64,000 nt of DNA from Escherichia phage AV111. Each line of letters opens with the position of its first letter. Within the stretch, counting starts at the first letter, position 1. The position numbers were made by a program, and so were the translations under genes. Below, one piece after another: positions 941 through 53,625 of the stretch. The stretch lies in sequence record OR352941.1; one strand, written 5' to 3'. The notes beneath the pieces were generated by a model that had not been told where the DNA came from, searched no databases, and was given only the letters and a program-made list of their open reading frames with translations.

Positions 941-1840
941 TTATTCCTCGATTACGACATCTTCATATTTAGGTATATTATACGGCGAAGAAATTAAAGC
1001 GTTAAAGTAGATGAACTCACCAAGACCTGGATGGAATACTTCTTCAGGATTTTCGAAATATTGAATCTTCGGACGTCCTTTAAGAATTTGATAGTACTCA
1101 GTTTTAGTTGGATTAAAAATTCGAATCAGCGCTTCTTCAGGATACTTATTTCTGTCGAAACTATTATTTGGATCAGTTATATAAAGCGGTTGACCTAATT
1201 GAATTGCGCATTCAACCACTTGTTCAAAACGATAGCATGGGTCACTAATTCGAAATGGATGAAAAATACCATCTAGATGAATAGGAGCCAAATCACCTAC
1301 AAGACGCTGCATGACGGAAGGACGTATAACTTTCTGCGTTACGATAATCTTATTACCATCTGCACCTGCGTTAACCAGCACTTCTTTTTGACGTTCATTC
1401 AACACAGTAGTTTGAAGTGAACGATTAACAGACAACATGTCGGTTTTTAAGAATTCATCAATATAAAAACGTGGTTTATTAGGGTCTGCAGTGATATTGA
1501 AATTGAATTCTACATCAAAAGCGCCGTCATATCCAGTGATATCTGTGATTAGAAAATCGCAATCATAATAAGCAATTAATGAATCAACTACAAATTCATT
1601 TTCAGACCAGAAATATTTACGAGTGTTATACGCGTTATCTTTATACCATAATGGAACAAACTTAAATTCTGGAAAAAGACGTTCGCATTCTTTAATATCA
1701 GATGCATTACGTGGATATGTAATCACATCACCCGGATTAGCACGGTGCAAATGAAGTTGGAAGTTGCCATCCTTAAGGATAGCATACTGTCCAGTTTCAT
1801 AAGACCGCATACTCAAGATAGGTACGCGGAAAATAGCCAT
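941..1840 (-). CDS. hypothetical protein, 299 aa (occupies the T4 beta-gt position; function unknown, candidate transferase)
   Basis: ORF track; tightly packed between P-loop gene and 42-like gene (1-nt spacing/overlap); no recognisable motif by eye. Confidence 0.6.
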   Translation of the reverse strand: MAIFRVPILSMRSYETGQYAILKDGNFQLHLHRANPGDVITYPRNASDIKECERLFPEFKFVPLWYKDNAYNTRKYFWSENEFVVDSLIAYYDCDFLITDITGYDGAFDVEFNFNITADPNKPRFYIDEFLKTDMLSVNRSLQTTVLNERQKEVLVNAGADGNKIIVTQKVIRPSVMQRLVGDLAPIHLDGIFHPFRISDPCYRFEQVVECAIQLGQPLYITDPNNSFDRNKYPEEALIRIFNPTKTEYYQILKGRPKIQYFENPEEVFHPGLGEFIYFNALISSPYNIPKYEDVVIEE

Positions 1841-51329: not shown

Positions 51330-51372
51330 GTTGCTTTTCCTAAGTTAATTAACTTATCTATTTATTATTATG

Positions 51373-51402
51373 CCAAAAAGCCCCGACCTTTCGGAAGGGG
51401 CT
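51373..51402 (-). terminator. rho-independent terminator (AGCCCC-ttccgaaaggtc-GGGGCT + TTTTTGG)
   Basis: Hairpin plus U-tract at the downstream end of the structured RNA region. Confidence 0.6.
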
Positions 51403-51712
51403 AAGCCTTGCGGCAACCTTGTCGGGGTTCCACCTGCTAAGGCAAGTGTTTGTACGAAACGCCGGGATTCGAACCCGGTTATTAAGTAGTTGACGCTACT
51501 CAATATTTTTAAAAGGCCATATCTCGACCATATCCGAACGTTCCGTCAAAAACGCTACTCGGCTTACGGCAAAGATATTTCCTCGAATCGATAATTCGGT
51601 GCGCCGTTTCTGCTGTGATGTAAGGGGATATTAACGAATCATAAAGATTTATTAAGACCAGTCCTTACTCAGGGAACATCAGTCCGACGACTTACCGGTA
51701 GCGACCCGGCTT
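51403..51712 (-). ncRNA. non-coding structured RNA region with a canonical tRNA-like T-arm (CCGGGTTCGAATCCCGG at 51461-51477); possible small stable RNAs or degenerate tRNA
   Basis: No ORF of 60 aa or more; T-arm consensus on minus strand; I could not fold a complete cloverleaf by hand. Confidence 0.3.
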
Positions 51713-51713
51713 C

Positions 51714-52058
51714 TTATTTTGGCATATCATCAATTTGCTCTCGACGCCGACGCCATAGATTAATCGCTTCATTGGCACATTCTGCGTTTGGTATATGACG
51801 GCAATAATATAATGATTCGCGTTTCTGGAACCGATGTTGTAATGGGATTTCGTTTAAAAGGTCTTTACGGTCAAAGTATTCAAAACTAGTTAACCCGGAA
51901 CGGTTTTTAATGAACTTCCAATGTCCAAATTCATTTTGAACATAGATGTAATCGGCATGTTGGTATAACAAATTAATCAATCGGTCTGAAATAACTGTAT
52001 CATGTTCGTTAAAATAAAACGTTAAATCATGAACTACCAGATAAATATTGCCTTTCAT
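51714..52058 (-). CDS. hypothetical protein (~114 aa; start at internal MKGNIYLVV)
   Basis: ORF track 51714..52109; the listed N-terminus overlaps tRNA-Arg, so the internal Met is used. Confidence 0.5.
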   Translation of the reverse strand: MKGNIYLVVHDLTFYFNEHDTVISDRLINLLYQHADYIYVQNEFGHWKFIKNRSGLTSFEYFDRKDLLNEIPLQHRFQKRESLYYCRHIPNAECANEAINLWRRRREQIDDMPK

Positions 52059-52076
52059 ATTTTCCTCACTTAAAGT

Positions 52077-52152
52077 TGGTGCCTCTAGAAAGATTTGAAC
52101 TCTCACCATTAACCTTAGAATGATTATATGCTATCCATTACACTATAGAGGC
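52077..52152 (-). tRNA. tRNA-Arg (anticodon UCU), 76 nt with encoded CCA
   Basis: Hand-folded cloverleaf: acceptor GCCTCTA/TAGAGGC, D-arm with GG, anticodon loop ATTCTAA, T-arm GAGAG-TTCAAAT-CTTTC, ACCA end. Confidence 0.75.
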
Positions 52153-52809
52153 AATTAAATTATTTACAATATCTTCTTTATAAACTTCAGCATAATGAAG
52201 TTCATATATTTCCCATCCTAATGATTTTATAATATCATGGCGTTCTTTATAATAAGGGGCCAAAATCTTTTTCTTAGGATTGGAGTAATGTTGGTTTCCA
52301 TTAACTTCAATAATAATCTTTTTATCTATTAAAGCAATATCCGTGCAATACGCTCGGTTTTTAACCGGTTGGTATTCTTCAATAAATGAAATTCCATTTT
52401 CTATTAATTTAGATTTCAAAAATTCACAAGGCACAGATTTAAATTTTGTATTTTTCTTCCAAGGATGTTTATCGGGGTTTTCATTCAACCATTTTTTCCG
52501 AGCATTAGATATTTTTATTCTAGCTTCCTCAGAGTGTTCTCTACCTAATGAAGCGGCTGACAATTTTTGTCTAGTCTCTTCCGAAATTACTACAGGAACA
52601 CCAGTCTTTTTAGATACAACATACTGGTTTAAATTACCTGAAGCTATACGTGCTTTATTCATTGCTGCAATGGCTGATTTAGAACTTTCTTTATACAATT
52701 CCAATTTAGGGTTGGATTTACACCATCTAGTGTGGTTAGCCATCCATCCTTTAGGTTTATTAGAAATATCAAATTCCATATTACAATGTTTACAAATGCT
52801 CATTACCAA
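52138..52809 (-). CDS. homing endonuclease-like protein: N-terminal zinc finger, NUMOD3-like motif, C-terminal Vsr/DUF559-like PD-(D/E)xK nuclease domain
   Basis: CKHCN...WCKSNPK; SEETRQKLSAASLGREHSEEARIKIS; YCTDIALIDKKIIIEVNGNQHYS; last 5 codons overlap tRNA-Arg 5' end. Confidence 0.65.
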   Translation of the reverse strand: MVMSICKHCNMEFDISNKPKGWMANHTRWCKSNPKLELYKESSKSAIAAMNKARIASGNLNQYVVSKKTGVPVVISEETRQKLSAASLGREHSEEARIKISNARKKWLNENPDKHPWKKNTKFKSVPCEFLKSKLIENGISFIEEYQPVKNRAYCTDIALIDKKIIIEVNGNQHYSNPKKKILAPYYKERHDIIKSLGWEIYELHYAEVYKEDIVNNLIASIV

Positions 52810-52877
52810 TTATCTCCTATAAAATATAGGAGTATTTATTATTTGGATAGAGCACTTAATTTACTTCGTTTAAATTA

Positions 52878-52949
52878 CTGGCGCACTTTGACTCGAACCA
52901 AGATAAAGGAGTTAACAGCTCCCCGTAATAACCTTTATACGATGCACCA
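52878..52949 (-). tRNA. tRNA-Asn (anticodon GUU), CCA not encoded
   Basis: Acceptor TGGTGCA/TGCGCCA, anticodon loop CTGTTAA, T-loop TTCGAGT; T-stem has one mismatch. Confidence 0.6.
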
Positions 52950-52955
52950 TTTGTT

Positions 52956-53030
52956 TGGTGACCCTGGCTGGTTTCGATCCAGCTACCTATCAGTTATGAG
53001 CTGACAGCTCTCCCATTGAGCTACAGGGCC
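52956..53030 (-). tRNA. tRNA with CAU anticodon (Ile2/lysidine-type or elongator Met), 75 nt with encoded CCA
   Basis: Acceptor GGCCCTG/CAGGGTC with C4-G69 and C5-G68, D-stem GCTC/GAGC, anticodon loop CTCATAA, T-arm GCTGG-ATCGAAA-CCAGC. Confidence 0.75.
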
Positions 53031-53109
53031 TAAATAACTTTCTATTATGAAAGGCACTTTAGAGCACCTTTGGTAATAGAGGGTATTAATTAATAATAAC
53101 ACATAATTC

Positions 53110-53625
53110 TTAAAGCAAATCAATCATTTTAACAGTTGGCAAAACGATTTCTTCTTCAATATAAGCAAATTCAACACATTCAACTACACGCAAGAAATCA
53201 TAATCATAATATTCAGAAGCATGACCAAGAATATCAATGAGACCTTCTGATACCAAATATCCATTCTCACGGAACAGGTCGAATACACGCGATTCGTCTT
53301 CTTCAGATTTATTACCAAGGTCGACTTCAATATCAAAGACCTTTTTAATGAATTCTGGATAAAGCTGGTCCGAGAACAGTCCTTCAACTAAGTATTCATA
53401 GATTAAAAGTGAGCAATCACTGAATGGTGTATTACCACAGTAACGTTCAGCTTTAGTGCTGGAATGACGACTCTTAAATTTCTTCAAAAGATATTTAAAC
53501 TGTTGGAGCTCATGCTCTTCCACACCAAATAACGTTTTGGTTTTATAGTTGTCGCCGTCATTTTCCCAAGTAGTGACATCAATTACGTAACCCTTAGGAA
53601 TTGTACTGCCTAAACAAATATTCAT
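53110..53625 (-). CDS. hypothetical acidic protein, 171 aa
   Basis: ORF track. Confidence 0.55.
   Translation of the reverse strand: MNICLGSTIPKGYVIDVTTWENDGDNYKTKTLFGVEEHELQQFKYLLKKFKSRHSSTKAERYCGNTPFSDCSLLIYEYLVEGLFSDQLYPEFIKKVFDIEVDLGNKSEEDESRVFDLFRENGYLVSEGLIDILGHASEYYDYDFLRVVECVEFAYIEEEIVLPTVKMIDLL

Follow-up and report, generated by a model that had tools for sequence, protein, structure and literature searches.

Phage sets of transfer RNAs (tRNAs) matching codon bias, as well as the species 1 and species 2 RNAs of bacteriophage T4, have been known since the 1970s and are an ordinary genome feature. In the T4 record (NC_000866), rnaD (species 2, 119 nucleotides (nt)) and rnaC (species 1, 139 nt) lie directly downstream of tRNA-Arg. 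The T4 tRNA cluster is transcribed from a middle promoter located just upstream, and transcription stops after species I (PMC2330249). Both species are late RNAs, as assessed by RNA-seq and Northern blot, and T4 RNAC is a discrete late RNA (PMC9697503). Moreover, a convergent single-nucleotide polymorphism (SNP) appeared in rnaD of a T4-like phage evolved on a semi-permissive host (PMC12685909). The function of the two RNAs is stated as unknown (PMC3014915, PMC9697503, PMC12685909), a fifty-year-old loose end in the best-studied phage. Here we analysed 64,000 nt of Escherichia phage AV111 (record OR352941.1; this whole stretch is called the window), and in particular the feature at positions 51,373 to 53,030. 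With high probability, the minus strand from 53117 to 51375 forms a single phage operon, which spans about 1.7 kb and corresponds, in a Mosigvirus, to the tRNA/stable-RNA cluster of T4.

Over a 24-kb piece, the window has about 97% identity with Shigella phages JK42 and JK36, both classified as Mosigvirus (RB69 group), while the 1.66 kb of the feature show 98% identity with Escherichia phages F2 and WFL6982. On these identities, the window is assigned to a Mosigvirus (RB69-like), a T4-like coliphage. The feature is already known, both as the T4/RB69 tRNA and stable-RNA region and through near-identical deposited sequences. The added value of the present work consists of the structure of the rnaC family, the correct name for the tRNA with anticodon CAU and the recognition of a non-SegB endonuclease cassette.

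Organisation of the AV111 tRNA/stable-RNA cluster

The element identities, orthology, consensus fold and codon bias reported below were obtained in this analysis. The principal elements, in the direction of transcription, are the following:

53093..53117, minus strand: T4 middle-promoter-like site, MotA box TGCTTTA, N12, -10 element TATTAT, 63-87 nt upstream of the first tRNA
52956..53030, minus strand: tRNA with anticodon CAU, probably of the Ile2 (lysidine/AUA) type; called by ARAGORN; RF00005 59.4 bits; CCA encoded; T loop AUCGAAA
52878..52949, minus strand: tRNA-Asn (GUU); called by ARAGORN; RF00005 45.9 bits; U1-A72, G73, CCA not encoded
52077..52152, minus strand: tRNA-Arg (UCU); called by ARAGORN; RF00005 57.6 bits; CCA encoded; A20 and A73 present
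51598..51717, minus strand: rnaD (species 2 RNA) orthologue, ends carried over from the T4 annotation
51451..51591, minus strand: rnaC (species 1 RNA) orthologue; the T4-annotated extent maps to 51591..51453
51403..51450, minus strand: trailer separating rnaC from the terminator, with small hairpins such as CACUUGC-CUUA-GCAGGUG
51375..51402, minus strand: intrinsic terminator, G+C-rich hairpin AGCCCC..CC-GAAA-GG..GGGGCU with a GAAA loop, then a U run (UUUU)

This layout matches the single tRNA/stable-RNA transcript of T4, of about 1.75 kb. Specifically, as in T4 (NC_000866, 70908..72530), the cluster is found between the trna.2-4 and e.x genes, with the same strand logic and a middle promoter upstream. 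It contains orthologues of tRNA-Ile(CAU) and tRNA-Arg(UCU), a homing-endonuclease-like gene just upstream of tRNA-Arg, and then rnaD, rnaC and a terminator after rnaC. It differs from T4 in having three tRNAs instead of eight, one of which (tRNA-Asn) is not present in T4, and in encoding a putative DUF559/NUMOD3 endonuclease rather than the GIY-YIG enzyme SegB. Other differences concern rnaD, which has a distinct apical part and is separated from tRNA-Arg by an extra gene, RB69ORF150c. With RB69 and PhAPEC2 the locus shares the order ORF150c, rnaD, rnaC and terminator, and its CAU tRNA is one base off that of PhAPEC2. However, both lack the endonuclease; RB69 has no tRNAs other than CAU and Arg, and the Asn and Arg alleles of PhAPEC2 are unrelated, so that in this comparison the AV111 block looks like a swapped cassette. 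Eighty-nine of the 101 long open reading frames (ORFs) of the window are on the minus strand.

A search of the whole window for the middle-promoter pattern TGCTTNA-N11-13-TANNNT returned 13 sites against 3.9 expected (about threefold), a number reached by none of 100 shuffles, and 11 of the 13 map to the minus (coding) strand. The exact T4 late promoter (TATAAATA) was not found in the region. By analogy with T4, the site at 53117..53093 may be active as a putative MotA-dependent middle promoter. At the opposite end, a first-pass annotation of this DNA, made from the sequence alone, had placed a strong terminator at the close of the non-coding stretch, and a G+C-rich hairpin running into UUUUU is indeed present at 51402..51375; the PhAPEC2 record annotates a terminator at the equivalent place. 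The span from promoter to terminator in the window is about 1.7 kb. The trailer at 51403..51450 is conserved in T4 and, in Dhakavirus, directly follows rnaD; possibly it serves as a processing site.

Expression as a single middle or late transcript, the processing route and RNA stability are drawn, by inference, from the T4 literature. On this model, the MotA-dependent promoter would drive one precursor ending at the intrinsic terminator, which the host tRNA-processing enzymes would cut into three tRNAs and two small stable RNAs. RNase P would trim the 5' ends and endo- and exonucleases the 3' ends, while the CCA-adding enzyme would complete tRNA-Asn.

Identification and distribution of rnaD and rnaC

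The first-pass annotation had described 51403..51712 as a stretch with no ORF, which could hold either small stable RNAs like T4 species 1 and 2 or a degenerate tRNA. In agreement with the lack of an ORF, none of at least 60 amino acids (aa) occurs there, the ORFs present being 34-49 aa long. The whole non-coding stretch folds with z = -4.4 compared to dinucleotide shuffles, and rnaC alone with z = -4.6. Positions 51730..51360 can be aligned with T4 rnaD/rnaC in almost every column: rnaC has hardly changed (about 98% identical), rnaD differs only in its apical third, and the rnaD of the window is 100% identical to that of RB69. The covariance model built for the rnaC family gives 167 bits to the window copy and 170 bits to T4, and finds one copy per genome at 113-170 bits, while real tRNAs reach 13-33 bits. 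Besides its sequence, rnaC has in common with T4 that it closes the tRNA cluster on the 3' side and precedes a terminator, and rnaD, which matches the annotated T4 rnaD, lies immediately upstream of rnaC.

In conclusion, as judged by alignment, the stretch of about 300 nt is the literal orthologue of the T4 species 1 and 2 RNAs. Of the degenerate-tRNA option, what stands is a tRNA-like acceptor/T-arm module kept in rnaC; the idea of decay does not, rnaC being a conserved RNA family of its own. A discrete, stable rnaC of about 140 nt has been shown for T4 and is predicted, by analogy, for AV111.

Copies of rnaC, 27 in total, were found in about ten phage genera. Divergent homologues occur in Karamvirus, Tegunavirus, Gelderlandvirus, Mosugukvirus, Moonvirus and Kanagawavirus, as well as in T4-like phages of Klebsiella, Edwardsiella, Cronobacter and Erwinia, and they are always located within tRNA clusters. 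In Karamvirus, Gelderlandvirus and Erwinia phage COW86c, rnaC is flanked by tRNA-Trp and tRNA-Gly and fits exactly between them; it sits just upstream of tRNA-Trp in Tegunavirus and Mosugukvirus, and lies within the tRNA cluster in the Klebsiella phage. rnaD is limited to four genera, namely Tequatrovirus, Mosigvirus, Dhakavirus and Gaprivervirus. Since each RNA is found without the other (rnaD without rnaC in Dhakavirus, rnaC without rnaD in Karamvirus and others), the two are independent modules. In Dhakavirus IME281 (1500..1700 of the examined locus) and CLB_P2, the contiguous CAU, Asn and Arg tRNAs, rnaD and the terminator region are kept and rnaC has been cleanly lost. In the tRNA cluster of Citrobacter phage Moon, a 127-nt stretch (1068..1194, minus strand) scores 33 bits with the rnaC model, above ordinary tRNAs.

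An Rfam search of the non-coding stretch at E <= 10 gave chance-level matches only (tRNA-Sec, 17 bits, E = 4.8; ceN54; isrK), and rnaC and rnaD fit no Rfam 15 family. One Arthrobacter match, the only hit of a single scan of bacterial genomes with the pattern of invariant columns, was rejected as a bacterial rnaC homologue by both the covariance model and ARAGORN. Of the roughly 800 T4-like genomes deposited, most have no annotation for rnaC and rnaD, or have spurious coding sequences (CDSs) or wrong tRNA calls in their place; a covariance model like the present one would correct this annotation.

Consensus folds of rnaC and rnaD

The elements of the rnaC fold map to the window as follows:

51590..51584 with 51461..51455, minus strand: acceptor stem, 7 base pairs (bp), CGAUUCG/CGUUUCG
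51544..51549, minus strand: proposed kissing-loop partner UUGACG, at the apex of arm P2
51490..51495, minus strand: proposed kissing-loop partner CGUCAA, the hexaloop of arm P3
51478..51462, minus strand: T arm CCGGG-UUCGAAU-CCCGG, canonical, stacking directly on the acceptor stem
51454..51451, minus strand: tail UACA

RNAalifold, run on eight rnaC sequences from six genera, returned 46 pairs, 28 of which show compensatory changes. When the comparison was extended to 19 sequences, 91.3% of the cells formed a standard pair (39-46% in slid controls) and 31 pairs were changed on both sides (7-10 in slid controls), values that were reached by none of 500 shuffles. In the acceptor stem, the tandem U.U at 4-69 and 5-68 is replaced by U-A and C-G in TG1 and by two U-A pairs in PM2; pair 1-72 is C-G or A-U, and pair 3-70 is A-U, G-C or G.U among the copies. 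The T arm at 51478..51462 is the perfect consensus that had already been picked out from the sequence. Position -1 is a U in 17 of the 19 copies, and the tail consists of an invariant U73 followed by NCA, with ACA in most copies, UCA in TG1, and CCA in PM2 and the Klebsiella group.

In place of the D and anticodon arms, the body of rnaC has a 3-bp helix leading to the P2 arm of about 60 nt, an A-rich linker and the 10-bp P3 arm. The P3 hexaloop, CGUCAA, and the apical UUGACG of P2 are exact reverse complements, a match that is maintained in the TG1 group (CAUCAA/UUGAUG) and in the Klebsiella group (CGCCAA/UUGGCG). Specifically, 99.4% of 155 cells pair, without any one-sided change, compared to 16-51% in slid controls. 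Because this complementarity is conserved through double changes, we propose that a 6-bp kissing loop joins the tips of P2 and P3.

No anticodon loop is present in rnaC, and neither ARAGORN nor Rfam at E <= 10 returned a transfer-messenger RNA (tmRNA) for it. We propose that rnaC is a tRNA mimic which, having no anticodon, would be unable to decode; the acceptor stem and T arm, U(-1) and the U73-NCA tail would together make it a substrate for tRNA-type processing. The tRNA-like domain of tmRNA and the bacterial Y-RNA-like YrlA likewise keep the acceptor/T-arm part and replace the anticodon arm with other helices. Unlike tmRNA, rnaC has no mRNA-like part and no G3.U70, and, unlike YrlA, whose ends lie at the distal end of a stem that binds Ro, it has its 5' and 3' ends at the acceptor stem; neither family gave an Rfam match at E <= 10. 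The covariation-backed fold with its kissing loop goes beyond the first-pass annotation and is absent from Rfam 15, although a tRNA-like fold of species 1 RNA may already have been described in the literature of 1975-1985. Together with the separability of rnaC and rnaD, the comparative fold (acceptor/T arm, U73-NCA, kissing loop) opens their function to concrete experiments.

Two other pairings were considered and discarded. In the first, the 3' strand of rnaC would pair with GAAACG at the 3' end of rnaD to give an RNA of about 170 nt; however, rnaC occurs without rnaD in Karamvirus, Gelderlandvirus and others, where it is CGAUUCG/CGUUUCG that covaries. The second, a 95-nt "tRNA-Met" called by ARAGORN inside the Karamvirus rnaC, is an artefact, its acceptor pairing not being conserved in other lineages.

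As for rnaD, eight phages show no change in the 50 nt at the 5' end or the 25 nt at the 3' end; variation is found in the apical hairpin, accompanied by some covariation. In the predicted structure 96.5% of the cells pair, compared to 30-50% in slid controls, and the five compensatory pairs are all apical. The loop of the 5' hairpin of rnaD, CGCUAC, is complementary to GUAGCG of rnaC, but a 6-nt match of this kind is at chance level, about four being expected.

Possible functions of rnaC and rnaD

Our preferred proposal, speculative and doubtful, is that rnaC would titrate away or distract some factor that binds to the acceptor/T arm of tRNAs, for example a defence nuclease or a processing enzyme. 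The acceptor/T-arm half would give rnaC tRNA-like processing and a tRNA-like look, while the body locked by the kissing loop would make it undecodable and nuclease-resistant. Late in infection, it might act as a decoy or sponge for a factor recognising the tRNA elbow/acceptor, possible targets being a defence nuclease of the host that cleaves tRNAs or an enzyme of tRNA processing; rnaD would be a separate accessory RNA, specific to the host. The presence of rnaC in the tRNA clusters of about ten T4-like genera and the convergent SNP in rnaD (PMC12685909) would fit such a decoy/accessory reading.

That rnaC and rnaD are instead trans-acting antisense regulators of phage mRNAs appears unlikely. 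It is a reading suggested by the label "small regulatory RNAs" used in recent omics work (PMC9697503) and by the same convergent SNP, which arose on adaptation to a semi-permissive host (PMC12685909). However, when antisense targets of the two RNAs were looked for within the window, nothing rose above shuffle expectation: the longest complementarity in these 64 kb, which are about 38% of the phage genome and include no host sequence, is 13 nt, a length often reached by shuffled RNAs. In addition, the invariant parts of both RNAs are mostly locked in helices.

tRNA genes and codon usage

In the window ARAGORN called three tRNA genes and no more, each of them on the minus strand, and the Infernal search against Rfam 15 (RF00005, gathering score 29 bits) returned the same three and nothing else above threshold. 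A score at or above gathering together with an independent ARAGORN call was taken to define a tRNA, and each of the three genes has both, with 45.9-59.4 bits; the three cloverleafs that had been folded by hand on this strand are real tRNA genes. tRNA-Asn has the weakest score and two non-standard pairs, U13.U22 in the D stem and G52.A62 in the T stem. It shares only about 50% identity with its tRNA-Asn counterparts in Dhakavirus and PhAPEC2, and it seems to have come with the endonuclease cassette described below.

Codons were counted in the 101 ORFs of the window (18,649 codons; G+C 36.9%). AGA occurs at 7.4 per 1000 (16% of Arg codons), AUA at 11.4 per 1000 (15% of Ile codons) and AAU at 35.3 per 1000, the corresponding E. 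coli K-12 values (Kazusa) being about 2, 4.4 and 18 per 1000. Taking this host table as our reference, the window would presumably exceed the host about 3.5-fold for AGA, 2.6-fold for AUA and 2-fold for AAU. The earlier argument that AGA and AUA are rare in the host and common in the phage therefore holds, and codon usage above the host values fits tRNA supplementation. In detail, the tRNAs would supplement decoding of codons used far more by the AT-rich phage than by its host: the CAU tRNA, once lysidine-modified by host TilS, would read AUA, Arg-UCU would read AGA, and Asn-GUU would read AAU/AAC.

The CAU tRNA had been suggested to be Ile2 on account of its acceptor pairs C4-G69 and C5-G68, which can be read directly from the sequence. 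We aligned it with the annotated E. coli ileX, metT and metV genes and with T4 tRNA-Ile:

AV111 CAU tRNA: pair 4-69 C-G; pair 5-68 C-G
E. coli ileX (tRNA-Ile CAU): pair 4-69 C-G; pair 5-68 C-G; 72% identity to the AV111 tRNA
T4 tRNA-Ile: pair 4-69 C-G; pair 5-68 C-G; 70% identity
E. coli metT (elongator): pair 4-69 U-A; pair 5-68 A-U; 61% identity
E. coli metV (initiator): pair 4-69 G-C; pair 5-68 G-C; 53% identity

Both pairs are therefore those of ileX and T4 tRNA-Ile, unlike metT and metV, in accordance with the earlier reading. It is by C4-G69/C5-G68 that TilS reportedly tells tRNA-Ile2 from tRNA-Met, a finding ascribed to Ikeuchi and colleagues in 2005. The CAU tRNA also carries A73, A37-A38, C29-G41 and U12-A23 (from the sequence and the Rfam alignment), which are identity elements of IleRS. 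An ordinary elongator (or initiator) tRNA-Met, the obvious alternative, is decidedly unlikely. The anticodon is CAT, and both ARAGORN and nearly all GenBank records say tRNA-Met, but callers using the anticodon alone are unable to separate Met from Ile2, and the label in most deposited records is a call from the anticodon only. Beyond the acceptor pairs, the highest identity is with ileX, and the sole BLAST matches in E. coli are genes annotated as tRNA-Ile. metV shows two initiator hallmarks, the C1/A72 mismatch and a run of three G-C pairs closing the anticodon stem at its base. The AV111 tRNA has neither: G1 pairs with C72, and its anticodon stem, GUCAG/CUGAU, lacks the three G-C pairs. All together, these data support the assignment of the CAU tRNA to the Ile2 type, predicted to carry lysidine and to read AUA.

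Its T loop (52970..52976, minus strand) is AUCGAAA, with A54 and A60, instead of UUCGAAU. This loop is common to PhAPEC2 and is not found in RB69, T4, Dhakavirus, Karamvirus or E. coli ileX; it is typical of eukaryotic initiator tRNAs. One CAU tRNA of Salmonella phage Melville (812..887 of the examined locus) is identical in sequence to E. coli K-12 ileX.

Assessment of the operon assignment

Two further readings of the non-coding stretch start from its resemblance to tRNA. The first, highly improbable and largely refuted by covariation, is that of one or more decaying tRNA pseudogenes with no function of their own. The stretch does hold a perfect T arm and an acceptor-like stem, its best, though weak, Rfam match is tRNA-Sec, ARAGORN calls its "tRNA-Met" in a part of the Karamvirus rnaC, and the name given in some GenBank records is tRNA-Lys, tRNA-Met or tRNA-Phe. 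However, the non-tRNA arms P2 and P3 are held by compensatory substitutions in about ten genera, as is the loop-loop contact, and each genome has a single rnaC copy with a score of 113-170 bits against the family model. Furthermore, the acceptor pairing drawn by ARAGORN, ACGGAAC with GUUCCGU, is missing from the Klebsiella and Gelderlandvirus copies, and T4 RNAC is a discrete late RNA on Northern blot (PMC9697503).

The second, that rnaC is a chargeable tRNA-like or tmRNA-like molecule, aminoacylated and acting on the ribosome, we regard as just as improbable. The acceptor stem, T arm and single-stranded U73-NCA tail would suit it, and a true U73-CCA is encoded in PM2 and the Klebsiella group, four copies out of 19, in PM2 even with G3.U70. 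Against it, besides the negative tmRNA searches by ARAGORN and Rfam, are the lack of a tag reading frame, of an anticodon loop and of a conserved G3.U70, the ACA or UCA, rather than CCA, of most copies, and the T4 annotation, which ends rnaC at U73-A74; in the window copy itself, pair 3-70 is A-U and the tail UACA. That the stretch encodes small proteins is scarcely credible: deposited genomes annotate two to five "hypothetical protein" CDSs over it, and ORFs of 34-49 aa exist, but no ORF is conserved across the family, substitutions keep base pairs and not codons, and T4, RB3, RB6 and Kha5h annotate rnaC/rnaD as RNA here.

Several points weigh against the assignment of 53117..51375 as a counterpart of the T4 operon, or against parts of it. 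T4 mutants from which the region has been deleted in full are viable on laboratory hosts. For AV111, transcript ends, stability and processing are carried over from T4, and the rnaC and rnaD ends, taken from the T4 GenBank annotation, may be 1-2 nt off. The basal helices of rnaD are invariant, so that covariation backs only the apical part of its fold, and the kissing loop of rnaC draws its support from only two independent lineages. In T4, rnaC as annotated runs from U(-1) to A74, a poor fit to a CCA-bearing mimic. As regards the tRNAs, tRNA-Asn, with its two mismatched stem pairs and lowest score, is a putative functional tRNA; the T loop of the CAU tRNA is atypical (A54), and lysidine at C34 is not visible in DNA, the modification being presumed from the T4 literature.

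The putative endonuclease cassette and the embedded ORFs

The first-pass annotation had described the region as a tRNA set plus non-coding RNA. While these elements were all recovered, two ORFs interrupting the cluster had gone unmentioned. The features concerned are:

52814..52832, minus strand: 8-bp hairpin whose 3' arm holds the Shine-Dalgarno sequence GGAG of the endonuclease ORF
52138..52803, minus strand: 221-aa free-standing homing-endonuclease-like ORF, putative NUMOD3 motif plus DUF559/Vsr-like nuclease domain (PD-(D/E)XK type), its last 15 nt overlapping tRNA-Arg
51714..52058, minus strand: 114-aa ORF, orthologue of RB69ORF150c (phrog_3355), its stop codon overlapping the first bases of rnaD

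In Pfam, the 221-aa ORF matches DUF559 marginally (E = 2.4e-4, 21.4 bits versus a cut-off of 20.6), with RAP (23.8 versus 24.2) and NUMOD3 (17.8 versus 20.4) below their cut-offs. It also matches phrog_9084 (homing endonuclease) with E = 1.5e-5, and its Rhizobium-phage homologues are annotated as homing endonucleases. It shows no similarity to SegB (BLASTP E = 2.1) and no GIY-YIG Pfam match, and a PDB sequence search returned nothing significant. Its occurrence is sporadic, with homologues in only 38 of 50,697 phage records; in Klebsiella phages, with 64% aa identity, it also abuts tRNA-Arg.

The Asn-endonuclease-Arg block of the window is common to only about ten deposited phages. In PhAPEC2 the near-identical CAU tRNA is directly followed by the unrelated Asn and Arg alleles, with no endonuclease, and RB69 has no Asn tRNA gene. 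On this basis the block behaves as a mobile cassette, in which the predicted endonuclease would travel with its own tRNA-Asn and tRNA-Arg. This resembles the T4 SegB system, in which a free-standing endonuclease gene with its start buried in a hairpin lies in the tRNA cluster, and in which neighbouring tRNA alleles are co-inherited with an endonuclease that is sporadic among close relatives (PMC2330249). SegB homing was shown experimentally in T4 (PMC2330249), whereas the AV111 ORF, a predicted endonuclease, belongs to a different nuclease family. By analogy with the occluded translation start likewise proposed for segB (PMC2330249), the hairpin at 52832..52814 may regulate translation of the endonuclease.

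For the 114-aa ORF, no significant Pfam match was obtained (only DUF2654, E = 0.032, below its cut-off), nor any PDB sequence match, and Foldseek against PDB gave nothing below E = 0.3 with an AlphaFold model of pLDDT (predicted local distance difference test) 70. Seven homologue clusters were found for this ORF, which matches phrog_3355 with E = 3.5e-50, a family that also follows the tRNA cluster in Karamvirus.

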